This document shows, piece after piece, positions 1,940 to 57,568 of a stretch of 64,000 nucleotides of DNA. Within the stretch, counting starts at the first letter, position 1. Each line of letters starts with the position of its first letter. The translations under genes were made by a program, and so were the position numbers. The notes under the pieces were generated by a model that ran no database searches, had not been told where the DNA came from, and worked only from the letters and a program-made list of their open reading frames with translations. The stretch comes from Naegleria gruberi (Eukaryota), in the NCBI GenBank assembly GCA_000004985.1, contig GG738857.1. One strand, written 5' to 3'.

Positions 1940-4900
1940 ATGAAACACTTGTTGGATTTCGCGTATATGGGGAGGAAATTTTCACACGTTGATCACGATG
2001 GTCAATTAGTAACAAGGGAGTTTCGCAACTGTTTATTTATTCTAATGATTGCTGCTTGGATAACAATGTTGTGGTTGCCAGCACTTGCACATGGACAACA
2101 GTTAACAAAGACATTTTACATTGATTCGCTTCATGTTTCGAATACTAATTCATTCGAATGTGGAAATTCATCAAATCCATGCACTACAGTACAAGATGCT
2201 CTCAATTATTTTGCTTCGGATAGTTACATTCTAATTCAACACCAAATTTCCACCTCCAACACCTCCACACTCACCATTCAATTAACTTTCTTCATGTTAA
2301 ATGATGAACACAATTTTTGTGGTTACAATTTAAACACAACATTTAATGATAATATTGATTATGAATTGAGTTTTATTGGAAATGGGGTTTCTACATTGAC
2401 ATGTACGAAAGGGTATGGAGAGTTGAATTTCATTGAACCTCGTTTGGATATTTCAAAAGTGTTGTTTAGTCAACTTTCGTTGATTGGAGTGGTGTTTAAT
2501 TCATGTTCTTCTATTTCATTGACAGTTGTTAATTGTTTGATAACAGATGGTGGATTTATGACTTATTATCAACTCCAAGAATGTCCCAATTACGTTGCTT
2601 CGAACAGAACTATTCGAAACTTGTACCTTTCTAATATTTCCACATGGAATGGTGTTTTTTTAATTGGAAATGCAAAGAATGGGCTTATAGAGAATATTAG
2701 ATGTGATGGAGTTAGTGCCCTCTCATTCAATAATATGGAATCCATTCAACTTTCGAATGTTCAAATGCCTGGTGATGGATTATTCTCTTCTAACAATGTA
2801 AACTCTATCAGTTTCAAGAATTTCATTTCTACTGGACCTACATTCAACATCCACATTAGAGAATTTAAATCATTCACAATGGAAAGTAGTTCCTTTCAAA
2901 ACTATAAGTATTTTCAGTCAGCTGTCAACATTGACAGAGGAGAAAGTGCCAAAATTATTGATACAACAGTTCAATATTCCAGTCAATGGCTTTCTGCTAA
3001 AACTGTTAAGAAAATTGTCATTTCCAATTTAAGATTTTTGAATAATTATGTATTGGATGTTAGAACTTCCTTTTTAAGTCCAATTTTCATTTATAGTTGT
3101 GATAGTATTAAGATTGAGAATTCTTATTTTGATGGAAATTTTGGAACTAGATCTGGTCCAGTATTTATTGATGATTATTTGAATGTTGAAGTTTCGAATA
3201 ATACATTCATGAATGGTCGATCACTTGCTTCAGGTGGTGCCCTACATTTGGATAATTATCAAGCAGAATCATTATTAGAAAAGGCGACTGTTTTGATTAA
3301 GGATAATTTATTCCTTAATAACACATGTGAAAGAGTTGGTGGAGCTGTTTGCATTAATACTGTGGTCAATTGTGTTGTTACAGGAAACAAATTTATTAGA
3401 AATCAAGCAGTGGTCACTGGAGGTGCTCTTACTATTGCTGAGCATTGTAGAGATTGCCTTATTGAATCATACTTTGAAGAAAACAAGTCAATTGGAAATT
3501 ATTTAGAATTGGATTCGAATATTGTTTTTTCACAACAACTTTGGAATCGAATTATTGGAACTGGAGGTGCTCTTGCCATTTTCACAGAACCAAGATTTTC
3601 ATTTAGGATTTATGGATCTGTATTTGTGAGAAATTATGCAGGAAAAGGAGGAGCAATCCTAATGGGACTCAATTTACCAATTTCTCTCTCACAAAAAACT
3701 CCAACTTTTGTGCAAGATTGTAAATTTGAGGGAAATTTTGCAACCAAAACTGGAAATGATATTTATGCTGTGAATTTTCAAGCTCCTTTATCATATGTTA
3801 GAACTTTTATTAATCAAACAGAGGGAAATGAATATAGTTTCTCATCTAGTCCCGCCATTTTTAGAATTGTAAAGGTTAGCACTAACAAAGTTTATCCTGG
3901 TCAACCGATTGATATTGCATTCTATGTGGAGAATATATTTGGAAGGGAGATTGATATTGCATCTCAATATGTGGTTATTGATCAATTTCCTAACATGCTT
4001 CCTTTTTTGAATTATTCAAATGTTGACAGAAAGTCACTTGTCTTGACTCCTTATTCATTAACTACTGAAATGCCAATTGTTTCTCAATTTAATTTCTCAG
4101 TTTATTCAGAAGATCAAAAATTTTCAGCTAGTTTCCAATTCGAAATGTTTCCATGCCCAAAAAAGTTTATTCTACAAAAGAATGTTGCCTATTCTAATCT
4201 GGTCTATCAATGTGTGAGTGATAATAGTTTAGATCTTTCACTAGTTCTTGGACTGACTATTCCAATTGGAATTTTATTCTTAATTGTAGGAGCAATTTTG
4301 GGAGGATTGTCAGTTTATGCTATTCGATTCACACTTACACAAATTTCAATTCTCAAGACGAAACAAAGAGCTGAGAAGAGTCTTGAACAGAGAATTATAG
4401 ACAAGAAGATCATTTTCAATTCAGATCCTTCATCTGGTACCACTCACTATTCGAAATATAGTACAAATAGTGACCTTTCGGTTCCATTAATCGAAAATGG
4501 TAGCGCAGAAAAGAGTATGGCCACTCCATCCTTTGTCATTCCAATCGAAAGCATTGATATTATCAAAAAGTTAGCAGAAGGTGGATTAGGCATAATTTAT
4601 CTTGGTAAATTATGGAAGAAAATTGATGTTGCCATCAAATTACTGAAATCAAACGATCAAGATGAAGAATTTGAACAGGAAGTTTCCCTTCTAAGTTCAT
4701 TAAGACATGATAATATTGTTACATTTTATGGTATTTGTATGTCAGATGATGCCAAGTATATGATTACAGAGTTTGTTGAAAAGGGATCATTGGATAAAGC
4801 TCTGTACAAGTCAAGGATTGGAGAGGTGTCAATGTCAATTCAAAAGAAAATGTCAATATTGATAGCGACAGCAAGAGGAATTGAATATCTTCATGGATTA

Positions 4901-5557
4901 ACACCAACAGTTGTTCATCGTGATTTGGTATGTAATATTAGTTTCACAATTTCGCAATTAACATTGTTTTTTCTCTATTGGAAGAAACCTGGTAATATCC
5001 TATTGGAAGAAAAGAATCAAGCAAAGATTTGTGATTTTGGTATTTCAAGAACTGTGTCCAATGCAACTGTCCAACAAACAGCCATGACCACTAATTTAGG
5101 TACCTTAATCTATTGTCCAAATGAAGTAATTGAAGGACCTACTTTGACTAATAAGGCAAGCAAACAAACTGCCACCAAAATTGATATCTTTAGTTTCTCC
5201 GTAATTATGTGGGAAGTTTTCTTTGAAATTATTCCTTATTCACCATCGGTAGGAAAATTAACTCCACTATTTCAGTTATCAAAAGAGGAAAATGAAATGT
5301 TGAGTATGAATTCGTTTAATATTCCTTATTTTGTGGTGAAGGGAATGAGACCATTGATTCCATTCAGAACAGATGAGCAGATTAGAGAGTGGATTGAAAG
5401 ATACATGCCTGAACAGATTCACAATTCGAATATTGTTCAATTTGTAAATCGATTCTTTGCATTGGTTCAACAAGGTTGGTCAACTGATGCAACCAAGAGA
5501 CCAAATATTACAACTGTATTACAAGAACTTGAAGAACTGAATAATCTGATCAGATAG
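1940..5557 (+). CDS. Receptor-like serine/threonine (TKL-type) protein kinase with a signal peptide, an ectodomain of parallel beta-helix (Pmp-like FxxN / GGA[ILV]) repeats, one transmembrane helix and a cytoplasmic kinase domain. It has one in-frame 57-nt intron at 4928-4984.
   Basis: N-terminal hydrophobic signal LFILMIAAWITMLWLPALAHG. Repeated motifs FMNGRSLASGGALHLDN, FLNNTCERVGGAVCINT, FIRNQAVVTGGALTIAE and FVRNYAGKGGAILMG. TM segment LVLGLTIPIGILFLIVGAILGGLSVYAI. Kinase motifs GGLGIIYLGK, VAIKLL, HRDL|KPGNILL (split by the intron GTATGT...GGAAG) and CDFGISR. Confidence 0.8.
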   Translation: MKHLLDFAYMGRKFSHVDHDGQLVTREFRNCLFILMIAAWITMLWLPALAHGQQLTKTFYIDSLHVSNTNSFECGNSSNPCTTVQDALNYFASDSYILIQHQISTSNTSTLTIQLTFFMLNDEHNFCGYNLNTTFNDNIDYELSFIGNGVSTLTCTKGYGELNFIEPRLDISKVLFSQLSLIGVVFNSCSSISLTVVNCLITDGGFMTYYQLQECPNYVASNRTIRNLYLSNISTWNGVFLIGNAKNGLIENIRCDGVSALSFNNMESIQLSNVQMPGDGLFSSNNVNSISFKNFISTGPTFNIHIREFKSFTMESSSFQNYKYFQSAVNIDRGESAKIIDTTVQYSSQWLSAKTVKKIVISNLRFLNNYVLDVRTSFLSPIFIYSCDSIKIENSYFDGNFGTRSGPVFIDDYLNVEVSNNTFMNGRSLASGGALHLDNYQAESLLEKATVLIKDNLFLNNTCERVGGAVCINTVVNCVVTGNKFIRNQAVVTGGALTIAEHCRDCLIESYFEENKSIGNYLELDSNIVFSQQLWNRIIGTGGALAIFTEPRFSFRIYGSVFVRNYAGKGGAILMGLNLPISLSQKTPTFVQDCKFEGNFATKTGNDIYAVNFQAPLSYVRTFINQTEGNEYSFSSSPAIFRIVKVSTNKVYPGQPIDIAFYVENIFGREIDIASQYVVIDQFPNMLPFLNYSNVDRKSLVLTPYSLTTEMPIVSQFNFSVYSEDQKFSASFQFEMFPCPKKFILQKNVAYSNLVYQCVSDNSLDLSLVLGLTIPIGILFLIVGAILGGLSVYAIRFTLTQISILKTKQRAEKSLEQRIIDKKIIFNSDPSSGTTHYSKYSTNSDLSVPLIENGSAEKSMATPSFVIPIESIDIIKKLAEGGLGIIYLGKLWKKIDVAIKLLKSNDQDEEFEQEVSLLSSLRHDNIVTFYGICMSDDAKYMITEFVEKGSLDKALYKSRIGEVSMSIQKKMSILIATARGIEYLHGLTPTVVHRDLVCNISFTISQLTLFFLYWKKPGNILLEEKNQAKICDFGISRTVSNATVQQTAMTTNLGTLIYCPNEVIEGPTLTNKASKQTATKIDIFSFSVIMWEVFFEIIPYSPSVGKLTPLFQLSKEENEMLSMNSFNIPYFVVKGMRPLIPFRTDEQIREWIERYMPEQIHNSNIVQFVNRFFALVQQGWSTDATKRPNITTVLQELEELNNLIR

Positions 5558-5758: not shown

Positions 5759-6142
5759 ATGAACAAAATCGTTTCTGTCTGCATTCTTGCTCTCCTTGTC
5801 TTATCTGCTTGCTTGGTCAACTGTCAATACAGCAACAATTATGGTACCAATTATGGTTCATATGGAGGAGCTGGTTCTAACTATGGTGTCACTGGTGGAA
5901 ATTACAATCAATATGCTCAAAATACTCAATCCTATTTGAATCAAATTAATGCAGTCAACTCAAGTCCTTACTCAAGTTATGGATCTTCATATGTTGGCCC
6001 AACAAATTATGGTACTAACTATGGAAGTGCTTACTCAATGCCATTCTATGGTGGTTATGGAGGTTATGGTGTTCCTTATTATGGTGGTTATGGTGGTTAT
6101 GGTGGATATGGTGGTTGTGTTGGTGGTGTTAGATGGTGTTAA
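5759..6142 (+). CDS. Small secreted glycine/tyrosine-rich structural protein (cell wall, spore coat or cuticle-like)
   Basis: Signal peptide MNKIVSVCILALLVLSACLVNC, followed by GYGG/NYG repeats. Ends in GYGGYGGYGGCVGGVRWC. Confidence 0.6.
   Translation: MNKIVSVCILALLVLSACLVNCQYSNNYGTNYGSYGGAGSNYGVTGGNYNQYAQNTQSYLNQINAVNSSPYSSYGSSYVGPTNYGTNYGSAYSMPFYGGYGGYGVPYYGGYGGYGGYGGCVGGVRWC
6048..6130 (+). repeat. Tandem GGTGGTTATGG-type (GYGG-coding) microsatellite-like repeat inside the CDS
   Basis: Reiterated ggtggttatgg / ggaggttatgg / ggtggatatgg units are visible in the nucleotide sequence. Confidence 0.6.
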
Positions 6143-11363: not shown

Positions 11364-12930
11364 TTACTTTTTTAAGAGAAATGCTGGTCTGGAAGGTTGT
11401 GAAAATCTTTCAAGACGATCCTTTAGTGAAGGTCTGGCATAATCTTGACATCTCTTCTTGAAGTCTTCCAATATCTTATTGGAAATCTCAATAACTTGAT
11501 TTCTATCACTCTCCTCAGTAATATCGTTTAAAATGCTGACTTGATTTTGTTGGAAATTCTCCACGAGTTGAGCAACAGCTTGATCGAAATCATCCATAGT
11601 TTTAAATTGCTTTGGACATGGATTTGATCTTCTGTGAATATCATAATAACTATTTTCCAAATTATAGTACAAACAAAGGACATTCTTATATGTTACAGAT
11701 ACTTGTTGATTATTAATTGGTCCATTCAATAATTCTTTTCCAATTGCAATTATCAATTCCTTCAAGGTTAATTGTTCAATCCAATTATGAGGAATTCCTT
11801 CAACTCCATAATAACATCCCATCAATTGACCAGCAATAGCTGCAACTGTATCAGAATCATCTCCCAAACGAGTTACCTTTTTAATTCCTTCACCAAACGA
11901 AGAAGTGTGGTAAAAATTCCACAATGCACTCTCTAAAGCTTTTGCAGAATATCCCGAGTTGGAAATTTCATCTTCATTCTTTGATTTAAAGTTGGTAATG
12001 ACATCAAGAACTTCAGCTCTCAATGGATACATTTCCCAATAATTAGAAGGCAATCCTTTTGGTACAAATGGAGTGGACGATAACAATTCTTCCTTTGATG
12101 CATTTTGTAAACAGCCAATCAACAAAGCAGCATAATATCTATTAGTATCAATTGCAATTGGTGAAGGATGTGTAGTCAAGGATGAAACACCACTCTCAGT
12201 AATTACTCTGTGAAGTAATCTTTCTTCAACAAATAGTTCAGATAATTCAATATTTGAAAATCTCTTCTTCCAATTCAAATATATACCATAAAAGTACAAT
12301 GGAATAGTTGCCAATCTCATTAAGGCACCATTTCCAGAAGCATTATCAGTCCATTCAGAAGCACTGCAAAAAGCAGCCTTATTCTTTTCATTTTTCAACA
12401 AGTGAACTATAGTTGTCTTTCCAATATCAAAACAATGTCCACTAGCTGACAAATGTCCATTATTATACCAATTCAAGAATTTGTCTTGCATATCTCTGCC
12501 ATCAATTGCACTATGAGGTATCATATCATTCACCCACATTGCATTATCCTTAGCATTATCCCACGGATAATTAACAATCAATTCATTTCCATTCGAAAGT
12601 ATTTCCTTGAATGTTCCCAATAAACTTTCGCCCTGAATAAGAGACATGGTTGTATCATCAGTAAACATGCCTTTCATTAATCTGAATTTTCCTTCTCCCA
12701 CCAAATCATCCCTTTTTTATTACAATTAAATATATTTAATATTTGATGATTTAAATATTATTTGATTGGAAGAATTTGATCGTCATGAATGAACAAATTT
12801 AATGTTCAGAATATTACAAAGGTACACACATACTTTAAATCGGAATCTTTAATTCCATGTCTAGGAATAAATTCAAATGTTGTTCCGTAAGCATCACCAG
12901 TGGCCATGCCTAATAAACATCCAAGAAATT
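11364..12930 (-). CDS. ADP-ribosylglycohydrolase family protein (ARH-like). Two exons with a 109-nt intron at 12715-12823.
   Basis: Exon 1 (12930-12824) encodes MESKFLGCLLGMATGDAYGTTFEF..., the family's N-terminal GDAxG motif. Exon 2 has the DDTTMSL and GNGALMRLA motifs. The intron runs GTATGT...AAAAAAG. Confidence 0.75.
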
Positions 12931-12990
12931 TTGATTCCATTGTTGATCAATGATGATATTAGGGTGGATGTTGTTTGTTCAATTTTTTAA

Positions 12991-13044
12991 TTATGAATAA
13001 TGAACTTGTTGTGGACCAATCATGAACATGGAACTGAGAAATTT
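12991..13044 (+). repeat. Copy A of a short dispersed upstream motif (TTATGAATAA..TGAACTTGTTG ... ATCATGAACATGGAACTGAGAAATTT)
   Basis: A near-identical bipartite sequence recurs at 19499-19575. Both copies lie upstream of minus-strand genes. Confidence 0.4.
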
Positions 13045-13124
13045 TGTTGAACTACAGTTTTTGATTCAATCAGTAGGGGGAAGACGTCCCTTATAATAAT
13101 ATTTAATTTTTCTTTGGTTCATAT

Positions 13125-13978
13125 TAGACTTCCGGAAAAAGTTTTGCTAAAAGTCGACTTTTTTAAGGTACTTTCACGCTAATTTGCAAAAAGGCGCCTA
13201 AAAGGTGCCTAAAAGGTGCCTTTTTTACCTAAAAACTACTTGAAACACATCCAAAGTTTGTTCAAGAAAATCTTGAGCAACTTTCAAACTGTTTTCAAAC
13301 AATTCCTCAAGAATGATTAATTACTTCTCAACCAAATTCTCAAAACGTTCAAGTATTTGCTGAAAAAACCCCAAGGGCCTTCAAACTTCTGAACACTCTC
13401 TTTCTTAACTATATCCTTTTCCAAAAAATCCACCAATTCCTTAAGAGATCCAAGGTTTTTGAATGTCACCATCTCGGGTCACTGTAGTTTTGATGGATTT
13501 TTTTACATCAATCACGAAATCTTTCGAAAGCTCTGGTCTTTTGGGCTCCTCAACTTTTCTTGGCATGATGATTGTTTTCTTTTTGATAAGGTTCAGGTTT
13601 TTTCTCTTTCTGGGTGGAGTGATGTTCAAATCAGATCTCTTCCTCTTCTGGATTTTTTCTTGTTTCACACTTTTTTCTTGTTCCTGTTTCATGCTTAATT
13701 CAGAATATGGTGTTTCATTAAGATTTTCTTCCACTTCCTCAACATCTTCCGTTCCATCAACAATAGAATCAGCAAGATTAGGGAACCTTTCAACTTCAGC
13801 AAATGCAGTAAAGAAAAGGTTGACATCAGGAAAAAGAAAGCTTCAATAAATGTGCAGGAAAGGTTTAAACATTTCTTGAATTATGCTCAAACAAATTTCA
13901 AAAATTGCTCAAACATTTTTCAAACCACTTTTTTAAAAAGGCGCCTTTTTATTTCTTTTTGACTTTTCCGGAAGTCTA
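13125..13978. mobile_element. Candidate non-autonomous DNA transposon or foldback element bounded by approximately 16-bp terminal inverted repeats TAGACTTCCGGAAAA(A)GT
   Basis: Left end 13125-13146 is tagacttccggaaaaagttttg. Right end 13961-13978 is gacttttccggaagtcta, its reverse complement with one indel. Subterminal GC-rich palindromes AAAAAGGCGCCT occur at 13189-13222, where the motif is reiterated three times, and once at 13937-13950. Subterminal inverted tracts of the ttgagcaa..tttcaaa type are also present. Confidence 0.45.
13441..13734 (-). CDS. Lysine-rich basic ORF inside the inverted-repeat element; coding status uncertain
   Basis: ORF of 97 aa rich in K/R/E (KRKRSDLNITPPRKRKNLNLIKKK). 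A further 42 stop-free codons follow in the +1 frame (ELVDFLEKDIVKKESVQKFEGPWGFF...). No recognisable domain. Confidence 0.3.
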   Translation of the reverse strand: MEENLNETPYSELSMKQEQEKSVKQEKIQKRKRSDLNITPPRKRKNLNLIKKKTIIMPRKVEEPKRPELSKDFVIDVKKSIKTTVTRDGDIQKPWIS

Positions 13979-16193: not shown

Positions 16194-16267
16194 TACCGAC
16201 AATGGGGCTCGAACCCACGACCCCAGGATTAGAAGTCCTGTGCTCTATCCAACTGAGCTATGACGGC
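16194..16267 (-). tRNA. tRNA-Arg (anticodon UCU), copy 1
   Basis: Minus-strand sequence GCCGTCATAGCTCAGTTGGATAGAGCACAGGACTTCTAATCCTGGGGTCGTGGGTTCGAGCCCCATTGTCGGTA. It has a D-arm GCTC/GAGC, the anticodon loop CTTCTAA with U33 and A37, and the T-loop GGTTCGAGCC. It is followed immediately by a T6 run, an RNA polymerase III terminator. The acceptor stem has one T-T mismatch. Confidence 0.88.
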
Positions 16268-16504: not shown

Positions 16505-19290
16505 TTAGTTTATCAATGATTGTTTCTTTTGGAGAAATGCAAGCTCAGAAATATTCAATAAATAACTCCTGTAAATAAATTTCCCATAATATTGCTCACA
16601 ACCACTCAGACCAAGGATGCCAAAATTTGGGGGGAACTTGTATTTACCATCCTTAAGATTTGCACTAAGAGGTTTGTTTGTAATAATTATAGCAAGAGAA
16701 GTATTTGGGGTTCCACCTATCAGTTCAAGTTTTGGTTCATTGAAATGATTTTGATAAATTTTCTTAACAGCAGTCATTGTTAAACTGTTTGAATCTGATG
16801 TGAAACTCTTGTCTTGCCATAAGATAGTCCAATTGTTATTATCAATATTGCAATCAGCAAATCTATGAAAAAATGAAGAGGTAAAATTATTTTGAACCAA
16901 AGTGTTCTGAGGAATCTCATATTTTGATCTAGTTACATCTGTTAAAATAGTAACAACTTTGTTTGGAAATGTGTTTAAATTAATAATCCTATACCCCATT
17001 TCTTTTTGAAACATAATTCCCTTAAATCTATCCTTGATATGCATTTGAGATACTCCTAAAATAATAAAGCAATAATTTTTTACAATTTCAAAATGTGCAT
17101 TGAAGATTTTAAAATCTCTGGAACAGGTGGTTTTTTTTTTAAATGCTGCTTTTTCAAGTGATTTAAATAATTTTTCAAAGGACGTCTTAATCTTAGGATC
17201 ATCAAATATGATAATATTTAAACAACTCAAGATCATTGGAAGAGACATTGTTATCAATCCATTAGCAATTCTTATATATCCATTATCTTCTAATTGTCTT
17301 AATTTCCTTGTATCAATTGTATCTATAATTTCAGAATTAACAGGTGTTTCTGTTAAAGTGTGGGCCAAAATTAATTTAGCTATTTCATTTTCAAAAACAA
17401 AGTTCACACCATAACTAGAAAAATTGTTCTTGGCAATGTTGTAGGCATTTTGTATTCTATCTTCAACGTTCAATGTTAATTTTGTGTCCTTCAAATTATC
17501 CAAAAACCATTCAATCATTCTAGGATGCTTGTTAATAAAAGTAAGAGCTTTCCATAACGGTGCTGCATATTTTAAAGAAGGAACATTTCTGCAAACAATT
17601 TCTAATTCGTCATCATCAGAAAATTGGTAAGGAGTAAAATAATTACTATGGAAACCTGATTCAAAAACTCTCCTTTCAAAGAAAGCCATATCTAATCCAG
17701 CAAATAATGGAAAAAGTTTAACAGAAGATGGTTTTTGGTTGTTGAGTATTACAAAATTACATATCATAGTGATAATTTCTGAAAAATTCATGTGTGGAAA
17801 CTCCTTAACTTTGGTATATTCATCAATAGCCAAATAAACAGCAACAGGTGAATCTTTTGGTTTGTTGTTAACTTCCTTCCAGTGCTGTACTATTGTCAAT
17901 ATTAACTCCTCAAAGGTAGGATTGATCTTGGCTAATTCAGATGCAATAGATGTAATGGTGTTTGTATCAAAACTTGGGAAATTTAAATATGAAAACAATA
18001 TTCTATATAAAAATCCCATTTTTAAATCATCACCAGCTCCTAAACTCATACCATTACCAAAGGAAATTCTTATTTCCAATGAATTATCTTTGTAATTTTT
18101 TTCTTGGGTGGTTAATTTGAAAATTTCTTGTAATGTCCTTGATTTTCCTAAAATATAATAAAATAATAAAATGATTATGCTAAAGTATAACACTACATAC
18201 CTGTTCCAGAAGCGTAGGCAAGGTAAGGAATAAAAATATTTTGTTTGTCTGTTTCGGTTTCTAATTTATGAAACGTTTCAGAAATTCCCTTGACAAGTTC
18301 ATCATTATATTTGAATGGCATGTCGATAATTGATCGAACTAATCTATAAGCATTTAGCCTGGCTCCATGTTTTGCAATAAAACTTGCCAATAAACTACGA
18401 TTTGAAAAATCAACATTGTCACAAGTAATTATGTACTGTTGTTTCCATCTTTCAATCACTTTCTCATTGTTGTCAGATATTTGAATGCCACTTAGTTTTA
18501 GGGATAACAAGTAGGAACTTTCGTTTTTAGTTAAATATTCTAAACTTTCGCTAATTGCTTGACTGATTTTCTCAGTTTGCCACAAATGAAAGAGTCTTGT
18601 TGTGAGTAGTTGGTATACCCAATTAACAACGGCCTCTAAAGTGGTTTGGGAAATGCTTTTGTAATCGTTGTTGTTTCTTACTTGTGTAATAGCATAATGC
18701 TTGTCCTTATCTTGGATATAAGTAACAATATTACTAAGAGCAATACCATCAAACCCAACATCATACAATTGCTTTACCTTTTCAACAATCAAACCAGCTC
18801 CACCTTTTCTTTCATCAGTGCACAACAAGGAGCAAACTTGTTCTTTTGTCCATTGTTTAAATTTTGTAGTATCCAATATTTGTTTGTTTTCAGTAGTAAC
18901 CAACGTTACTGGTTCAGAATAAATATTCTCGGAAAGAAAAGTGGTAGTAGAATAATTTTTGCAAGAATTTGTGACGGCAAAAACATGCTTCGTTCTATAA
19001 TGATTGTTTTTGTTTTTTGTTGGATGAATTTGATTTTGCATCTTTAATCTGGTTGAGGTTGAATAATTCTTTGTATTACTAGTATCATTATGCAAATAGA
19101 TGGTGCAACTAATACCGACAGAGGTTTGCCTCAACTTTTGTTGATTAATTGCGGTTTTGGGCAATAGTAAAAGCTTTCGAGGGAGACAGGAGGTGGATAT
19201 TTTTTTTTTGACTCGGAAAAAATTCAACAACTTAGGATGATTATTGTTGATTTTCAGAGTGGTTTCTCTTGGTGAGTACTTTTCCATCAT
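16505..19290 (-). CDS. Large SAM-domain-containing protein of unknown function. Two exons with a 53-nt intron at 18148-18200.
   Basis: ORFs 18193-19290 and 16505-18193 join through a minus-strand intron GTATGTAGTG...TTTTAG, reading ...AYASGT|GKSRTLQEIF. A SAM-like segment WTKEQVCSLLCTDERKGGAGLIVEKVKQLYDVGFDGIAL is present. Confidence 0.6.
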
Positions 19291-19498
19291 GAAGTGTGTT
19301 ACTTGGAGTTTTATGGAACAGACGGATAATCCATTTGTTAGAAAGGTAGAACTGGAAGATCACAAGAGGCAAGATTGCCAACTTATCAGTTTTACCACAA
19401 GAATACCTATTATTAGTATTTTTACTTCATCAACTCGAATATTCTAGTACCACTGTTTAAATCACCACATCTGAAAAATCACAAAAAAGAACTATTTA

Positions 19499-19575
19499 TT
19501 ATGAATAATTGATGAACTTGTTGAGAAGAAAAGCTACTTCTCGATCATGAACATGGAACTGAGAAATTTATTGAA
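19499..19575 (+). repeat. Copy B of the dispersed upstream motif
   Basis: ttatgaataattgatgaacttgttg ... atcatgaacatggaactgagaaattt matches 12991-13044. This copy carries an extra palindromic insert gagaagaaaagctacttctc. Confidence 0.4.
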
Positions 19576-19799: not shown

Positions 19800-21293
19800 A
19801 TGATTACACCAAAATTTGAATGCATTCAAAATGATGAATTTGTGATAGTGACTATTTACATTCCTCATGTAAAGATGACGGAAATGGAATATAGTATTGA
19901 TAATAATTCTATTGAAGATGAAGATTATGCTCATACTAAATCATTGTTTAGATTTTATGTTAAACCATACTTTTTAAGATTACATTTTGCACAAGCATTA
20001 CAAGATGAAGGAAGTAATGATTTTTCAAAGTATGATCCCGATAATGAAAAGTTAATTGTTCATTTACCTAAAAAGAATAGAGGAGAATATTTTGAAAATC
20101 TTAATATGATTACATGGTTATTAGGATCGAATAGAGAAACACAAGGAACTACTTCATTATTTAATAATTTGACAAGTAATAATATCATTGCTGAACCAAC
20201 TGCACGTGATGAGAAGAAAGCTCCACTGATTGAAGTTGTCGAAAGTAATAATGATGATGAAAATAATGAAATGGATGATGAAGAAGGTGGTGGAATGTAT
20301 GATGACAGTGGTGTTTCTGAATGGGAACAACAATTACCAGGTGATAAGAGTGCGTCTGAAGTGATGAAGGAAGAATTAGGTATTGCCAAAGTTTATTATG
20401 GATTCAATAAGCAATTTACTGATATTTTCACAAAATTCTCAGAGGAATATATTAAAGAAATTATTGATACACCTTATCCAGAAGTTTTACCACAAGAGGA
20501 AAGAAGAAAGATTAGAGAAATGGAAGAAGTTGATGCATTTGATCCTGAACATTATCTTCTCGATATGATGAATAAGGATAGAGATATCAAGATGATTTTT
20601 GATTATAAACCAGCTTGGACAGTTAATCCACAACCAGTTCAATGGACAGAGAAGGAGCAAAAGATGCTCTCTGAATTACCAAAGAAGGAATATTTAATTT
20701 CAAACGAGTTATCTGTCTATTGTGGTCTAGTTGATTTGCTCTGCACATTTGCTTACAATTATAGAAGTTTTATGGGAGAAAATAACGTTGAAAGCTCTTG
20801 GACTATTTGCAAGATGAGTTCACAATTATCCTGGTTGGAAGAATTGACCAATCTGAAAGATACTTTACAAATTTTCATCAGTCGTTCATGTTGCTTTGCA
20901 TTATACAGAAACTTTGATTTGGCCCTCCAATGTATCAAAGATGTTGTCGATTTACTCATTCTAGGAAAGGAATATGTATTGAGAGCTCTTTTAGAAATTA
21001 AGGATATTTTAGCTCACACTTTGGACAAGTATTTACTCAACAAGATTTATGTTGATAATTATTGTATATGGATCCAAGGTGTCTCCAACCAATCTCTTTC
21101 ACAATTAGGTCAAGCCATTCTCAAAGTTGTCAATGAAGATTTCCTTGGCCAAAGAAGTGAATTCCTAATTTCCAATGCAGTTTCACTCAAAAAACTCGAA
21201 GATTATGCTCAAGATTCTCTCGAAGAAGTTGGTGGAAATGTCGATGATCTCGTAATGACTGAACAAGATAAAGAAAGACCACTGGCTCTTTAA
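19800..21293 (+). CDS. SHQ1: SHQ1 homologue (box H/ACA snoRNP assembly factor)
   Basis: The N-terminal CS domain MITPKFECIQNDEFVIVTIYIPHVKM...FRFYVKPYFLRLHF...LIVHLPKKNRGEYFENLNMITWLL aligns with SHQ1 (human [26 protein letters not shown]...FKFYAKPYFLRLTLPG...[24 protein letters not shown]). Confidence 0.8.
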   Translation: MITPKFECIQNDEFVIVTIYIPHVKMTEMEYSIDNNSIEDEDYAHTKSLFRFYVKPYFLRLHFAQALQDEGSNDFSKYDPDNEKLIVHLPKKNRGEYFENLNMITWLLGSNRETQGTTSLFNNLTSNNIIAEPTARDEKKAPLIEVVESNNDDENNEMDDEEGGGMYDDSGVSEWEQQLPGDKSASEVMKEELGIAKVYYGFNKQFTDIFTKFSEEYIKEIIDTPYPEVLPQEERRKIREMEEVDAFDPEHYLLDMMNKDRDIKMIFDYKPAWTVNPQPVQWTEKEQKMLSELPKKEYLISNELSVYCGLVDLLCTFAYNYRSFMGENNVESSWTICKMSSQLSWLEELTNLKDTLQIFISRSCCFALYRNFDLALQCIKDVVDLLILGKEYVLRALLEIKDILAHTLDKYLLNKIYVDNYCIWIQGVSNQSLSQLGQAILKVVNEDFLGQRSEFLISNAVSLKKLEDYAQDSLEEVGGNVDDLVMTEQDKERPLAL

Positions 21294-21480
21294 AACTGTG
21301 AACTAACTAAAATACCAATTAATTTCGAATATTGTATGAGCAGCTAAAAAATTCCCGCCAAAAATTTCTACAACACAACCAATATCCTCAACTGTATTTA
21401 TCTCTCACTACAAATTCATGCTCAAACAAAATCACAATTAAAAAAAAAACAAAGAAACCCTTCTTTAACCGTTTTTCATA

Positions 21481-22317
21481 ATGAATCATAATAACACAAG
21501 ATTGTCGTCGTTATCTTCGGGGGTAGTGATACAAGCAACGAGGCAAGTGAGAGATTTGGCGGCTATGGAGACAGCCTCAACCTCATTGAAATCGACACCT
21601 TCCGAGCCAGTTTGTAAGATAGTCACATCGTTGAATGAGAATACTCAACAAGTGGATGACAAAAGTCTAAATTGTGTACAATCAGATTCGAGGAGTGATA
21701 CTGTTTCGTCTGTGAGGGATTTGTGTAGAGCTTTGAGTAAGAAATTATCCCTCACACAACAAGATAAACAGAAAGATAGATTCCAATGTTTATTAGATCA
21801 TGTGAGATATTCGAATAGTGGATATCATCTAGAGAACTATTGTACATATGACAAAATTGTTGATTGTAATATATTTTCAAAGAGAGTACCAGTTTCAAAT
21901 GTATTGATAGAAGAAGTGACGTTTAAGGATTTTGCCACTCTGTATATTTCCTCCAAATTGAAACAATCCAACTTGAGGTTAATAGAAAAGGAAGAGCTAG
22001 AAAGAAGGTATTGTCTTAAATTAATGGCAACATATAGTAATTTTAGACCAGCCAAGCAGTCGTTAGAGATTCAAAACTCAACTGGTAATGAAACTGTCAT
22101 TGGTGGTAATTATCATGATACCATTTACTGCTGCGAGTTTACTCTTCCAAAATCACAAACCAAATCATTCATTTTACTGGAAGGGAATTCAGTTGATTCC
22201 AATCACAAGTTCAAGCAATTTTTACATGTATTTCGTGTCTATGGAGAGGATTTATTTTCAAAGAAAACTTTTAGTCATTCCAAAAATTTATGTGATATTA
22301 CCATTCACACCAAGTAA
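21481..22317 (+). CDS. Hypothetical protein
   Basis: ORF of 278 aa with no recognisable domain. Called on composition and length only. Confidence 0.4.
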   Translation: MNHNNTRLSSLSSGVVIQATRQVRDLAAMETASTSLKSTPSEPVCKIVTSLNENTQQVDDKSLNCVQSDSRSDTVSSVRDLCRALSKKLSLTQQDKQKDRFQCLLDHVRYSNSGYHLENYCTYDKIVDCNIFSKRVPVSNVLIEEVTFKDFATLYISSKLKQSNLRLIEKEELERRYCLKLMATYSNFRPAKQSLEIQNSTGNETVIGGNYHDTIYCCEFTLPKSQTKSFILLEGNSVDSNHKFKQFLHVFRVYGEDLFSKKTFSHSKNLCDITIHTK

Positions 22318-22507
22318 AACAAAGCACTTTTCAGTTATCATCTTCTGTTCCAGTCCATAAAAAATGTTATTCCAATGGAGAAGACAAATTAATGGTAACA
22401 CTCGATAGATCGCAGAGAAAATCTTTAATAATCATGGGGTAACCCAGTAAACAAGAGTTTTTAACAACCTTTGTTAAAACATCAAGTCAACGAATCCATC
22501 AAAAAAA

Positions 22508-23935
22508 ATGTCCCAACAATACTTTTCTCGTCAATTAGTAGTATTCTGTCTAGTGGCGGCTCTTGCAATGACCTCTATGGTTCAGGGTCATACTATGACA
22601 ATGCATGCAAAGCTCGTCAATGTCATTCATCAAGTAAAGAACAAGATGGCAACAACTGTTACAGATCCAATTCCAACACGTCCTCCACAACTTCCATCTG
22701 CATTCAATGCAACAGTAACTACTACAGTACCATTCATTGGACAAGTCACTGGTCCTTTCTATTTTGATTATGACAATTCAAGAATGAGAACTGATGTTTC
22801 AATGTTTGGACAATCTCAAGCATCCATTGCTTTTTACAATGAAATGGTTCAATATGATATCATGTTACCAAATGGTCCATGTCAAGTGAAAAAATTGACA
22901 GATCCTATTTATCCATTCATTATTCCACCATTTGCCACATTTGTTGGATTTGAAAATGTCAATTCTAAAAATTGTCAACATTGGAACCTCCATTTGAGTC
23001 CATATATTATGGATTTTTATGTTTCATCAGATTCTAATGAAGATAATGGAAAGGATACTTATTATGTGGTTAGATTTACACTTTCTACTGATCCTACCTA
23101 TCCTATTCCAATGAATGTTCAAATGGATTTTGAAAATGTTCAAGTAGGTCCACAACCTGATTCACTTTTCTCAATTTGGAAGAATGCTGGTTGTCCAGTT
23201 CCAAAACCACCAACCTATTATTCTGTCAGTGGATACACAAAGAATGCTTTGAATGGACAAGTTATTCCAAATATTCAAGTTTCTTTGAGTTATGGAAATC
23301 AATATTTCAAAACTGCCTCAGATAAGAATGGTCTTTTCACATTTGACAAGGCCTTGGCAGGTTCAAATATTATTTTGAGTACTGAAGGTTTCACTAATGC
23401 AGGTTATCTTCCAATCAAGCAAAATATTTCATCACTTTCTGGTAACATTAACGCAGGAACAATTGCTGATTTGTTCTTGAGTCCAGTAATTCCATCAGGT
23501 CAATGGAGAGCCATCTTGAGTTGGGCTAGCTCACCTCGTGATTTGGATCTTCACATGATGATGCCAAATGGATGTCATACTTACTTTTCTAATAAGCAAT
23601 GTTTCACTCCTCAAGGAAATGCCACTTTGGATCACGATGTTAGAAATGGATTTGGTCCAGAAACTCTAACTCTTTCACCAAGTTCCAATGCAGCCAATTC
23701 TGAATTCAACTATTTTGTTTATAATTATAGTAATGAAGCAAGTTATGTGAAATCTCAAGCCCTTGTAAAGATTTACAATAGTGCAGGATTTGTTAATCAA
23801 ATTCAAATTCCAACAAGTGGATATGATACAAGTGCTCGTTACTGGAAAGTTTTCAAGTTGGTTATTGATGGAAGTGGTCAACCTCAAGTCAAAATTATCA
23901 ACACAGTTTCTCAAACTAATTTAATAGTTTATTAA
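22508..23935 (+). CDS. Secreted protein with a carboxypeptidase-regulatory-like (prealbumin-fold) segment
   Basis: Signal peptide MSQQYFSRQLVVFCLVAALAMTSMVQG. The segment GYTKNALNGQVIPNIQVSL...NGLFTF resembles a CarboxypepD_reg fold. Confidence 0.55.
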   Translation: MSQQYFSRQLVVFCLVAALAMTSMVQGHTMTMHAKLVNVIHQVKNKMATTVTDPIPTRPPQLPSAFNATVTTTVPFIGQVTGPFYFDYDNSRMRTDVSMFGQSQASIAFYNEMVQYDIMLPNGPCQVKKLTDPIYPFIIPPFATFVGFENVNSKNCQHWNLHLSPYIMDFYVSSDSNEDNGKDTYYVVRFTLSTDPTYPIPMNVQMDFENVQVGPQPDSLFSIWKNAGCPVPKPPTYYSVSGYTKNALNGQVIPNIQVSLSYGNQYFKTASDKNGLFTFDKALAGSNIILSTEGFTNAGYLPIKQNISSLSGNINAGTIADLFLSPVIPSGQWRAILSWASSPRDLDLHMMMPNGCHTYFSNKQCFTPQGNATLDHDVRNGFGPETLTLSPSSNAANSEFNYFVYNYSNEASYVKSQALVKIYNSAGFVNQIQIPTSGYDTSARYWKVFKLVIDGSGQPQVKIINTVSQTNLIVY

Positions 23936-23998
23936 CAATTAATAAATTTTTTTCAGAAGTTAGATAATTACATTATGTACACATAGTTATTATTATAT

Positions 23999-24751
23999 TT
24001 ACAAATTCTGACCACCAATAATCTTTTGAATTATTTCCTTATCTTTAGTTTCCTTAGCATAATCCAAAATAGTCCTTCCTCTATTATCCTTAGCTTTCAA
24101 ATCAATTGAGTGAGTATCTATGAGAGCATTAATACTTTGTCTGAGTCCACTCTTTTGATCGAAAGGATTCTTCTGTTTACTCAATCTCTCCATTGCATAC
24201 ATTAGAACATTTCGACCTTTCTTATCCTTTGCATTAATGTTGAGTGAGTCCTTTTTCAAAATTGCAAGAACCAATGAAAAGTAATCAACACTGTACATTA
24301 AAATTGTTTTTCCCTCTACATCACAATCATTGACACTGTAATCTGATAATATTTTGAACATGATTGAGGAAAAACCCCGTTCAGTGGCAAACATTAGAGC
24401 TGATTGTTGAGTTTCAAATGTTTTGAGTGAATAGTCAATTCCTCCAATAGACATTAATCGAGTTACATATGAGAAATTTTCATTAATAATAGCATGCATC
24501 AAGAGAGTTTTTCCCAAATAATCTTGCTTATTGACCAGTCTTGGATTAATGAGCATTAATTTTTGAAGATGAATTGTAAATTTGTTATCGGAATTGGAAT
24601 CCTGAACACCTCCACTCATCATACACATAGAAAATAACATTTGCAAAATAATTTCATCCTCTCCAAGTCTGATTGTTGGTGAAATTATTTCTTGAATATT
24701 AACCTGTTCTGATGATTCATTCTCGAATTGATAAGCAACAATATGAGACAT
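23999..24751 (-). CDS. Ankyrin-repeat protein
   Basis: Repeated G(K/R)T(L/I)LMYA...G motifs spaced about 33 aa apart: GKTLLMHAI, GKTILMYSV, GRNVLMYAM and GRTILDYAK. Confidence 0.7.
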   Translation of the reverse strand: MSHIVAYQFENESSEQVNIQEIISPTIRLGEDEIILQMLFSMCMMSGGVQDSNSDNKFTIHLQKLMLINPRLVNKQDYLGKTLLMHAIINENFSYVTRLMSIGGIDYSLKTFETQQSALMFATERGFSSIMFKILSDYSVNDCDVEGKTILMYSVDYFSLVLAILKKDSLNINAKDKKGRNVLMYAMERLSKQKNPFDQKSGLRQSINALIDTHSIDLKAKDNRGRTILDYAKETKDKEIIQKIIGGQNL

Positions 24752-24835
24752 TTTTTAAATATGTAATAATATTAATATTAAAAAGAACGTGATTGTAATT
24801 TTAGAAATTTTAGTTGTATTTTATGTTTGAGAAAT

Positions 24836-25420
24836 TTAAGCTCTCTTCTTGTATTGTCTAGAAGCTCTTCTACCTCTGCCCAATTCACCGTATCTACCTT
24901 CTCTCTTAGTGCTACCGTGCTTGTATGGCTTGGCGTGAGAACCAGCTTGACCTGGAGCCAAACCGAAGTGCTTCTTGGCTTCAGTATTCTTGTTACCTCT
25001 CAAGAGAACGCAACCCTTACCGTCTGGTGAGATTTGGGCCAATTGATCGAAAGTCAAGACTTGACCACCGTTTTCAACAATTCTCTTTCTGGCAGTTTCA
25101 GTAACGTGCAAAGCACAGACCTTCAAACCCTTTGGAGCATCCAACAAACGAGCATCATTGGTGATGGTACCAACAACGACAGCAACTTCCTTCTTTTCAC
25201 CAACGAGCTTGGTCAATCTGGCGAGAGTGACTGGTCTTTGTTCTCTTCTAGTGTGCAACATTCTGGCCAAAACCTTCTTGTTGAATTCAGCACCAGTTCT
25301 TCTGGCCAAGAGCTTGTAGAGCTTGACCAAGATGGACAAGTAGACGTTTGGAGAAACCAAATTCTTTCTAACGGACTTCTTTTCGTGAGTCTTTGCCAAG
25401 TACTTCTTATCAATACCCAT
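24836..25420 (-). CDS. RPL18: 60S ribosomal protein eL18
   Basis: MGIDKK...LSILVKLYKLLARRT...VAVVVGTITNDARLLDAPKGLKVCALHVTETARKRIVENGGQVLTFDQLA...GRGRRASRQYK aligns along its full length with eukaryotic L18. Confidence 0.9.
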   Translation of the reverse strand: MGIDKKYLAKTHEKKSVRKNLVSPNVYLSILVKLYKLLARRTGAEFNKKVLARMLHTRREQRPVTLARLTKLVGEKKEVAVVVGTITNDARLLDAPKGLKVCALHVTETARKRIVENGGQVLTFDQLAQISPDGKGCVLLRGNKNTEAKKHFGLAPGQAGSHAKPYKHGSTKREGRYGELGRGRRASRQYKKRA

Positions 25421-25768
25421 CTTTAACTTTTGATGATAAATAAAAGCGTAACAGTGATACCTACTTTTTCAGGATTTTTTTTTCAACAAACTTTTAAAAT
25501 TTTTGGTTGAGCATTCTCTGGTTATTTTACAATGAAAAATTTTACCTCCAAATCCATATTGTTGTTCTCTTTTGCGTGTTAAAAAAACAGGGACAATTTG
25601 TTACTTTCATCAACACCATGATGTTTTGAACAATACAATCCTACCCGAGCTAATAAAACATGCAAATTGGAGTAAATTATTTTGCTATTGGATTCATCTA
25701 CCTAGTACTAGGATTATAACACATCATCAAGATAAACATTCATAATGATACAACTCACCGAATACTAT

Positions 25769-26998
25769 TTATTTCTTTTGGCCTAATTGTTGAGCAAATT
25801 GTTGATAGAATTTTTGGTATTGTTCTTGTTGCTCTTTGGAAAGTTGAGAAAGTTGAGAGTCAGTATTAGGATAGGATGCAGCAACTTTAGAACTTAGGGA
25901 GGCAGAGACCTGTTGATGAATATTGGTCTTTTCATTCGATCCCTTAATATAATTAAAGTAATCTACCTTTTTTCTATCATCATTGGCCAATGCTCCTTGT
26001 TTTCTTAGATTGTCTCTATATGTTTGTTCACTCTTCTTTTCATCAGCTTGTTGAGGTAAATAGTGTTGATAGTATTGTTGTTCTACAGATTTTGTTCCTT
26101 TGATATTAGTGGCAGCACCAGCAGAAACTTGTTGTAATTTGGAATTCATTTGTAAATGTTCTGGAATAATTGGATTTTCTGGTGTGTAACCTTCTGGATA
26201 GTGGAAAGGAAGTGAGGTTGTTGAAATTTTCTTCTCTTCCAAAGATTCCTTGATTTTGTTTTTCATTTCCTGCTCGTGACGTTTGGTGGCCAATGGATTT
26301 GGATCATCAGCACTCCAACGAATATGAATAATATCATCATTATCCAATGATTGACCTAGCATGGCTTCCTTTGCAAATTCAGCACACAATCTATTCTTGT
26401 ATTTTACAAAAGCATAACATTTTTCTGGAAATGCTCTAATATATTCAACTTCTCCCCATTCTTTGAAATGTCTCAGTAAAACTTCCTCATAATCAACTCC
26501 TGAAACATATTTAAATCCACTCACATATAAAGTACGACAATCCCTATTGAAAGAACCAACACCTGACATGTCATCACGATCAGTTGCATGTTTAGGTCTT
26601 CCGAAACAGTCTTTGGTAATTGGTATTCTACTAGCATCAGATGTTGTTGGTATTCTGTGAAGATATTTACATTCTGCTCCTTCAGCACATCTTCCATGAG
26701 CAAAGAATAGACAAAATACCGAATCCTTCAATGTACATCCAACAGTCCATCCAGCATCTGTTTTTATATTACATCTACTTTCTGCAGGTTCAATTTCCTT
26801 CTTTTGATGTTGTTGTCCAATATATTTATGATACCAAATGTTGTATTCTCCTCCGGTTTCTTCTTTTTGTAAATTTTGTTCGGCTGTTTTTCTTTGTGCT
26901 TGTACGCGAGCCTTTCTTATCTTTTTTACTCCACCACTGCTCGGGGATGGCACATCACTAATTTTATCTGATGATGAAGAAGAAGTTTGATTGACCAT
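25769..26998 (-). CDS. CWC2: Pre-mRNA splicing factor CWC2-like (CCCH zinc finger plus RRM)
   Basis: N-terminal NIWYHKYIG (compare yeast Cwc2 NIWYNKW). CCCH finger FCLFFAHGRCAEGAECKYLHRIP. RRM CRTLYVSGF...KCYAFVKY. Confidence 0.75.
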   Translation of the reverse strand: MVNQTSSSSSDKISDVPSPSSGGVKKIRKARVQAQRKTAEQNLQKEETGGEYNIWYHKYIGQQHQKKEIEPAESRCNIKTDAGWTVGCTLKDSVFCLFFAHGRCAEGAECKYLHRIPTTSDASRIPITKDCFGRPKHATDRDDMSGVGSFNRDCRTLYVSGFKYVSGVDYEEVLLRHFKEWGEVEYIRAFPEKCYAFVKYKNRLCAEFAKEAMLGQSLDNDDIIHIRWSADDPNPLATKRHEQEMKNKIKESLEEKKISTTSLPFHYPEGYTPENPIIPEHLQMNSKLQQVSAGAATNIKGTKSVEQQYYQHYLPQQADEKKSEQTYRDNLRKQGALANDDRKKVDYFNYIKGSNEKTNIHQQVSASLSSKVAASYPNTDSQLSQLSKEQQEQYQKFYQQFAQQLGQKK

Positions 26999-27163
26999 TT
27001 TTTTAATATTTTGTTTTTATTTTGATCTTTTGTTGTTAAAAGGCTAAATGTTTTTTTAGAAAATGTTCATACCAACATTTTGTAATCTTTAAATTAAATA
27101 AACAATGGAAACTGCTGGATCACACAACGAGACTATGATAAAATATGTTTTTATTAAGCTTTC

Positions 27164-56701: not shown

Positions 56702-56879
56702 TATTCATAGTACTATTCAGATGTTCCTTTTTTACACCATTGTGTTTTCAATTAATTGGAATAAAGTTAAAATTTGAAAATCTGATGGGCTCCAAACACG
56801 TTCACAATGTTGATATTCCTGTGGCTGATTTAATATGAAGGAAGTCGTTGTTTTTAAAAAGACAAAAGACTACAGCACC

Positions 56880-57298
56880 ACAGGTTCCCAAGTTGTCTCC
56901 AACCTCAGTACTGATGTGGCTCGACGATGCTTAACTTCTCAAATCGGACGGGATGAGGTGCATTCATCGTGATATGGCCGTAGCCATTAAATTCCTTAAT
57001 ATCTGAATTATAAATATATTATCTATACTAAATTGAACGTTTTCAGACCTCAAGTTGTTAATTCAGTTCTCCAGTCTGGACGTTTGATTGCTGATGCATG
57101 TGAATCATTCGCCGAACATTGTATTGATGGATTCAAGCTAACGAACCAAAGATTAAGGAATATGTCCAAAACTCCTTAATGTTGGTAACTGCCTTGAACA
57201 CAATTATTGGGAATGCAAAGAAGGCCTACCAAGAAAATATCAGCTTGAAGCAAGCTTGTTTGGACCTCAATTTTCTTACCAATTATTCCTTTCATTAA
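56880..57298 (+). pseudogene. Decayed 3' fragment of a class II fumarate hydratase (fumarase/aspartase family) gene
   Basis: Frame 0 (57033-57164) reads LNVFRPQVVNSVLQSGRLIADACESFAEHCIDGFKLTNQRL. Frame 2 (57149-57298) reads [49 protein letters not shown]. Together they align to the fumarase C-terminus [94 protein letters not shown]. At least one frameshift lies in an A-run at about 57147-57150. Weaker, multiply frameshifted similarity extends upstream to about 56880. No room exists for the N-terminal two-thirds of the protein. Confidence 0.5.
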
Positions 57299-57494: not shown

Positions 57495-57568
57495 TACCGA
57501 CAATGGGGCTCGAACCCACGACCCCAGGATTAGAAGTCCTGTGCTCTATCCAACTGAGCTATGACGGC
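57495..57568 (-). tRNA. tRNA-Arg (anticodon UCU), copy 2
   Basis: The 74-nt sequence is identical to copy 1 and is followed by T6 (plus strand cagataccgacaatggggctcgaaccc...). The flanking sequences are unrelated to those of copy 1. Confidence 0.88.

Follow-up and report, generated by a model that had tools for sequence, protein, structure and literature searches.

A two-copy bipartite intergenic repeat in Naegleria gruberi and its possible origin by patchy local duplication

Gene content of the window and position of the two copies

The window, i.e. the whole 64-kb stretch of Naegleria gruberi nuclear DNA analyzed in this study, contains about 33% G+C and is gene-dense, with occasional short introns. 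Two copies of a repeat unit, copy A and copy B, lie 6.5 kb apart on the same strand of its intergenic DNA, and their coordinates, together with those of their parts and of the neighboring genes, are listed in Table 1.

Copy A is located 50-111 nt upstream of the ATG of a gene encoding an ADP-ribosylglycohydrolase (ARH). This gene is interrupted by an intron (about 110 nt, roughly 12705-12822), and its ORF 11364-12704 shows 100% identity to an N. gruberi predicted protein. The ATG at 12940 can be taken as fixed because in-frame stops are found just upstream of it. The left arm of an inverted repeat (13125-13978) begins 74 nt to the right of copy A; its perfect 15-nt arms, TAGACTTCCGGAAAA and TTTTCCGGAAGTCTA, are 824 nt apart. 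All seven near-copies of AAAAGGCGCCT that occur outside the ORF 1940-5557 fall between these arms (0.23 expected in the whole window), and arms and near-copies bracket a small Lys-rich minus-strand ORF (13441-13734). The arrangement might mark a pair of regulatory sites or the two termini of a small mobile element. A tandem 9-nt repeat of TATGGTGGT, a Tyr-Gly-Gly-type coding repeat, was also recorded at 6047-6128, outside ORFs of at least 150 aa.

The intergenic region that contains copy B separates two divergent genes: a minus-strand orphan ORF, whose ATG (19290) is 208-285 nt away from the copy, and the plus-strand SHQ1 gene, whose ATG (19800) is at 225-302 nt. The SHQ1 product is 68% identical to SHQ1 of N. 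fowleri and 56% identical to that of Willaertia magna, and its start is conserved in relatives. An earlier sequence-only reading had placed both copies just upstream of minus-strand genes, which is correct for ARH and copy A; copy B, however, is about equally near to SHQ1 on the other strand. The same reading had called the minus-strand neighbor of copy B a SAM-domain gene, a label that found no support: for the orphan ORF, Pfam remained negative up to E<=1, and the protein search yielded no homologue.

The orphan ORF abuts a second minus-strand ORF, and the two (562 and 365 aa over 16505-19290) probably belong to one gene that an intron or a frameshift has divided. Neither part has a Pfam domain, and the 365-aa part lacks a homologue in the protein search. 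At their junction, a P-loop-like stretch (..ASGTGM) followed by a Walker-B-like VYLAIDEY was recognized by eye, and the G+C content of this region is the lowest of the window (30%). Between the two copies lie an F-box/DUF1963 gene, a tRNA-Arg gene, a small ORF and orphan ORFs. No relatives of the F-box protein or of the larger orphan ORF were found on viral contigs, and with the orphan ORF having no homologue at all, an integrated viral or foreign segment between the copies was rejected.

Table 1. Coordinates of the repeat copies, their parts and the adjacent genes
Feature	Position	Strand	Description
Copy A of the repeat unit	12990-13051	+	62 nt
Copy B of the repeat unit	19498-19575	+	78 nt
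Block ATTATGAATAAT (12-mer)	12990-13001 (A), 19498-19509 (B)	+	100% identical
Block ATGAACTTGTTG (12-mer)	13000-13011 (A), 19512-19523 (B)	+	100% identical
26-mer block ATCATGAACATGGAACTGAGAAATTT	13019-13044 (A), 19544-19569 (B)	+	perfect match
First half of copy A	12990-13011	+	ATTATGAATAAT and ATGAACTTGTTG overlapping by 2 nt
First half of copy B	19498-19523	+	net 4-nt insertion, making TGATGA at 19510-19515
Spacer of copy A, TGGACCA	13012-13018	+	7-nt palindrome, absent from copy B
Spacer of copy B, AGAAGAAAAGCTACTTCTCG	19524-19543	+	20 nt, unrelated to the copy A spacer
TTGAA common to both copies	13047-13051 (A), 19571-19575 (B)		separated from the 26-mer by 2 nt (A) or 1 nt (B)
CTGA inside the 26-mer	13034-13037 (A), 19559-19562 (B)		
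ADP-ribosylglycohydrolase (ARH) gene	11364-12940	-	two exons; PF03747, E=3e-40
Orphan ORF	18193-19290	-	abuts ORF 16505-18193; putative start ATG at 19290
SHQ1 gene (H/ACA snoRNP assembly factor)	19800-21293	+	PF04925, E=3e-53; PF21413

Structure of the repeat

The window was read and searched, and the two copies were found to consist of three colinear blocks that are 100% identical, without a single substitution over 48 block positions. The earlier observation that two halves are common to both sites, in the same order and orientation, is confirmed by these blocks, and the similarity runs somewhat farther than had been noticed, by one base on the left and by TTGAA on the right. Within the first half, ATTATGAATAAT and ATGAACTTGTTG share 2 nt in copy A, whereas TG stands between them in copy B; this gives the net 4-nt indel already noted from the letters, which sits in a TGA/ATGA-repetitive context.

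The halves are 29 nt apart from start to start in copy A and 46 nt in copy B, a difference of 17 nt. Those of copy A resemble each other at 13 of 17 positions without gaps (p ~0.045); in copy B, the 4-nt insertion disrupts the register between the halves. The copy A spacer and the bases next to it form GACCAATCA, which is CCAAT-box-like as judged by eye only. The palindromic insert that had been described between the halves of copy B is likewise present: a 6-bp inverted repeat, GAGAAG (19523-19528) and CTTCTC (19537-19542), which is made up of the spacer plus the preceding G, and the minimum-free-energy fold shows it as a hairpin with a stem of 8-9 bp.

Statistical support, copy number and boundaries

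When up to three mismatches were allowed, the 26-mer had two matches in the 64-kb window and none in 100 dinucleotide shuffles. A chance origin of the match was therefore ruled out on this result of 0/100, in agreement with the earlier judgment that a 26-nt match of this kind is improbable by chance. The repeat is real, intergenic and bipartite, and it is far beyond chance.

No third copy of the unit was detected in the window, where the next-best match to the 26-mer (50763-50788, 77% identity) lies within an ORF. Copies A and B are the only non-tRNA repeat of high identity and at least 20 nt in the window, the other such pair being the tRNA-Arg genes. These two tRNA-Arg(TCT) genes, at 16194-16267 and 57495-57568 (minus), are identical, and their 3' trailers agree at 91% over 94 nt; a 5S rRNA gene (56867-56985, minus) lies about 500 nt from the second of them. 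The search for a further copy in 50 kb of related Naegleria and Willaertia DNA was negative, and so was the search for the core 20-mer in viral and JGI metagenome collections, which hold no close Naegleria relatives.

Alignments of the flanks, 50-220 nt on each side, were no better than those of dinucleotide shuffles, 481/500, 276/500, 209/500 and 195/500 of which reached the observed scores. An older and larger duplication with decayed flanks was ruled out by this shuffle-level similarity. Uniform neutral decay cannot yield identical blocks around an unrelated spacer; recent copying of the blocks alone can, and so can selection acting on the blocks. The repeat has sharp edges, a low copy number in the window and no counterpart at the orthologous SHQ1 loci of three relatives.

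A discrete unit with sharp edges, unrelated flanks and identical blocks, present twice in intergenic DNA, is what members or fragments of a young, small dispersed repeat or mobile-element family would look like, with the two copies being close by accident; under random placement, two copies in 64 kb would be spaced by 6.5 kb or less with P ~0.2. We nevertheless consider this origin, which the sequence-only reading had listed among its candidates, rather unlikely. No terminal inverted repeats were found: ATTATGAATAAT at one end does not correspond to the reverse complement of GAGAAATTT..TTGAA at the other. Convincing target-site duplications are lacking as well, and the A/T-rich direct repeats at the edges (AATTTT in copy A and ATTTATT in copy B) overlap the repeat unit and are uninformative in this respect. 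The unit has neither coding capacity nor tRNA-like promoter boxes, the neighboring orphan proteins have no relatives on viral contigs, and as far as DNA was sampled (window, 50 kb from related species, viral and JGI metagenome collections) no member beyond the two copies came to light.

Comparison with box C/D RNA genes

The size and layout of the unit would also fit a pair of paralogous plus-strand small RNA genes of the box C/D snoRNA type. A length of 62-78 nt matches that of small protist C/D RNAs, and block, spacer and block follow each other as in snoRNA paralogues. In copy B, TGATGA (19510) and CTGA (19559) are 49 nt apart within the 78-nt unit, with a hairpin at its center; CTGA is present in both copies, and an ATGATGA is found 84 nt upstream of the CTGA of copy A. 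In addition, a conserved LSU rRNA site, GGGTTCCATGTGAAC, could pair with the 8 nt immediately before CTGA in 115/120 eukaryotic rDNA contigs. Even so, the C box is not conserved: copy A has TAATGA at the homologous position, the TGATGA of copy B is created by the 4-nt indel, and the ATGATGA of copy A (12950) is not part of the shared unit but is found 10 nt from the ARH ATG. CTGA occurs 432 times and TGATGA 148 times in the window, and 25 TGATGA are followed by CTGA within 25-95 nt, an arrangement that here arises by chance, so that the D box is present but non-specific.

The two copies share no terminal stem; by eye, only a 5-bp A/U pairing (AAUAA/UURUU) was seen, out of line with the boxes. 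Folding gave no significant result (z = +0.94 for copy A and -1.73 for copy B), no fold on either strand of either copy is more stable than those of shuffles, and the copy B hairpin has no counterpart in copy A. At gathering scores, Rfam reported only one 5S rRNA and two tRNA-Arg in the window, and permissive scans of both regions gave no snoRNA family below E = 1. A known RNA family was excluded on this basis, the snoRNA hits of both regions being noise at E>1.

The guide was assessed on a set of 120 rDNA contigs from other eukaryotes, which carry a conserved LSU pattern. The stretch ACATGGAA just before CTGA pairs with TTCCATGT over 8 nt in 115 of these contigs, within the conserved site GGGTTCCATGTGAACAG. 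The complementarity extends to 9 nt in only 5/120 loci and is conserved at 10 nt or more in none, and a candidate guide in the first half, CAACAAGT, finds its target in only 7/120 contigs. Neither strand of either copy holds a complement of at least 10 nt to conserved rRNA in this set. Random 120-nt pieces of the window match rRNA as well or better, with 9-nt complements in every case and 10-nt complements in 87%. As a side observation, the 26-mer (13019-13037) contains TGAACATGG, which equals the sense strand of a conserved LSU hairpin, GTTCCATGTGAACAGCAGTTGAACATGGG, and also ACATGGAAC, the complement of the other arm of that hairpin; since the rRNA site forms a hairpin on its own, this likeness was put down to coincidence. 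Judged from the sequence, the snoRNA reading breaks down at the C box and the terminal stem, and no guide emerged from comparison with rRNA of organisms other than Naegleria; we regard it as very unlikely.

Comparison with related species

The nearest genomes compared were those of N. fowleri and N. lovaniensis, with 53-68% protein identity. At the SHQ1 loci of N. fowleri, a second Naegleria species and Willaertia, no trace of the motif was found. To the right of SHQ1, the gene order (a 278-aa gene, an ankyrin gene, ribosomal protein L18 and a Torus/RRM gene; 19800-27000) is conserved in these three. The left neighbor of SHQ1 is different in every species sampled, and therefore copy B is placed at a synteny break. 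In the locus of one relative (L002), a tRNA-Glu lies 150 nt upstream of SHQ1. A similar difference is seen at the other site. In N. lovaniensis (L004 6113-9641), the gene directly upstream of ARH and on the same strand is the homologue of the window gene 23-1555, which in N. gruberi is 10 kb from ARH and on the opposite strand; the 5' flank of ARH, where copy A lies, thus likewise marks the edge of a rearrangement.

The N. lovaniensis ARH locus gave a weak match to copy A. The best match in 17.6 kb was located within the 91 nt that precede the ARH ATG, with TGTGGATCAACCATGAAC at -84..-66 corresponding to TGTGGACCAATCATGAAC at -87..-69 in N. gruberi, i.e. at the same distance from the ATG. Its score was reached by only 1/500 and 3/1000 shuffles of the 91-nt region, and by 19/500 to 34/1000 shuffles when the whole 500-nt N. 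gruberi intergenic region was the query; scores of 26.5, as against 27 for this match, are found elsewhere in the same locus. The match is inverted relative to ARH, yet palindromic, and it covers the private spacer of copy A and the first 9 nt of the 26-mer, not the parts held in common with copy B. Copy B itself had no match in the N. lovaniensis ARH upstream region (209/500 and 453/1000 shuffles were as good), and the motif was not matched at one more distant ARH locus. We read this similarity as a hint that copy A partly overlaps the promoter-proximal DNA of ARH, with a portion that may be constrained, and not as evidence for a module common to both copies.

Regulatory and leader readings

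A cis-regulatory module was the first candidate offered for the shared motif. The blocks would be putative sites of one DNA-binding factor, possibly built from repeated ATGAAC-like half-sites, and would place ARH under common control with SHQ1, the orphan gene or both. Several features agree with such a role: both copies are intergenic and 50-300 nt from start codons, the blocks are perfectly kept with a spacer free to vary, the halves of copy A are alike as paired binding sites would be, and the weak N. lovaniensis match lies at an equal distance from the ARH ATG, where its palindromic nature may make orientation immaterial. On the other side, that match is marginal and leaves copy B unmatched, and nothing similar is found upstream of SHQ1 in three relatives. 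The spacing of the halves is not kept either, the 4-nt insertion breaks the register of copy B, and the distances to the nearest ATG differ about four-fold. The words ATGAAC, ATGAACT, TGAACT and CATGAAC are not denser outside the long ORFs of the window than inside them, and a general promoter word of the ATGAAC type was rejected for lack of enrichment outside ORFs. With its sub-motifs not enriched, its absence upstream of SHQ1 and a weak, inverted match at ARH, the module is not borne out as proposed; we rate it as unlikely, albeit a candidate of some weight.

The minus strand of both copies contains ATGTTCATGAT..., which would encode MFMIGPQQVHYS in copy A and MFMIEK in copy B, each followed by a stop. 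Both copies lie 5' to ORFs on the minus strand, and in each a short ORF starts at the same ATG. A transcribed 5' leader of these genes, such as a short upstream ORF, might therefore be envisaged, and a 5'UTR or antisense element had indeed been suggested before. The peptides, however, diverge after four residues, and the main ATG is 50 nt away in one case and at least 208 nt in the other, a roughly four-fold difference between the two minus-strand genes that speaks against the suggestion. The copy B gene is moreover an orphan with a putative start, and the N. lovaniensis resemblance, if real, is inverted relative to ARH, which is impossible for a leader element. A leader is accordingly highly improbable in our judgment. 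A coding exon or conserved peptide was eliminated, as the short ORFs of the 26-mer diverge right after the shared bases on both strands.

A patchy local duplication as the possible origin

The explanation that we tentatively prefer, and would place somewhat short of probable, is a young, lineage-specific duplication that is both local and patchy and was produced by error-prone or template-switching repair or recombination, with no function demonstrated. The repeat itself is probably an ordinary one. Perfect patches are colinear with a nearby template, the filler between them is unrelated, and the homology ends abruptly, as expected of a duplication by repair. Two copies lying close to each other in cis, the lack of conservation at the SHQ1 loci of three relatives and the absence of signs of an RNA gene or a general promoter element agree with this reading. 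The evidence points to local duplication, the outcome that the sequence-only reading had itself set against its proposals in case the motif recurred nowhere else, and a dispersed family keeps the low standing given to it above.

According to this scheme, one of the two sites would have served as the template, and three patches of 12, 12 and 26 nt would have been copied, in order and orientation, to a site 6.5 kb off on the same chromosome. The likely process would be an error-prone, template-switching repair or recombination event. The same event would have left non-homologous filler between the patches, including the 4-nt slip and the 20-nt filler with its snap-back hairpin in copy B, for which no source was found nearby. 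Copy A is probably the older one because its spacer region alone resembles another species. At most, copy A would overlap promoter-proximal DNA of ARH, and copy B would have carried part of that DNA to the region between SHQ1 and the orphan gene. We infer the copying mechanism, the direction of copying and the lack of function from the pattern of the patches and from these comparisons.

Implications

If the repeat is only a local patchy duplication, its importance is minor; it would be a small example of repair or recombination scattering short patches in a protist genome, and a caution that perfect intergenic 26-mers need not be regulatory. Distinctly unlikely, in our estimate, is a lineage-specific unit with a function, which selection would have maintained after its copying to a second locus, either as a DNA module coupling ARH with SHQ1 or with the neighboring orphan NTPase-like gene, or as an unusual C/D-like RNA with very short (8-nt) box-to-box spacers touching the LSU rRNA site GGGUUCCAUGU. 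Naegleria promoters and snoRNAs are essentially uncharacterized, and our literature search found no dedicated study of Naegleria snoRNAs or upstream motifs. A functional element would be among the first cis-elements or small RNAs defined in Naegleria, and would still be of local interest.

Comparison with known systems

Box C/D snoRNAs resemble the repeat in length (62-78 nt), in a CUGA near the conserved 3' part, in the UGAUGA of copy B and in having conserved ends around a variable middle. They differ from it by a conserved C box, a terminal stem, antisense of at least 10 nt to conserved rRNA and a match in Rfam, and the box arrangement itself is common by chance in this AT-rich DNA. MITEs are likewise short, non-coding and sharply bounded intergenic repeats, but the unit studied here lacks terminal inverted repeats and a clear target-site duplication, is shorter than most of them and has two copies in the window.

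Promoter-proximal clusters of factor sites, e.g. of the CCAAT-box type, are comparable in their position, here 50-110 nt upstream of the ARH ATG, and in the ATGAAC-like internal repeats, the palindromic core and the GACCAATCA of copy A. In contrast to such clusters, the CCAAT-like sequence is private to copy A and not retained in N. lovaniensis, spacing and gene distance vary between the copies, and the sub-motifs are not enriched in the other upstream regions of the window.

Templated insertions of double-strand-break repair, which arise by polymerase-theta-type end joining, template switching and snap-back synthesis, usually have shorter patches and closer templates in other organisms. Judged by this general knowledge, the N. 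gruberi repeat, with patches of about 50 nt in all and a template at 6.5 kb, would exceed the typical values. In the short perfect patches and the order of the template, and also in the unrelated and hairpin-forming filler, the small slip-type indel and the sharp edges, the repeat and such insertions are alike.
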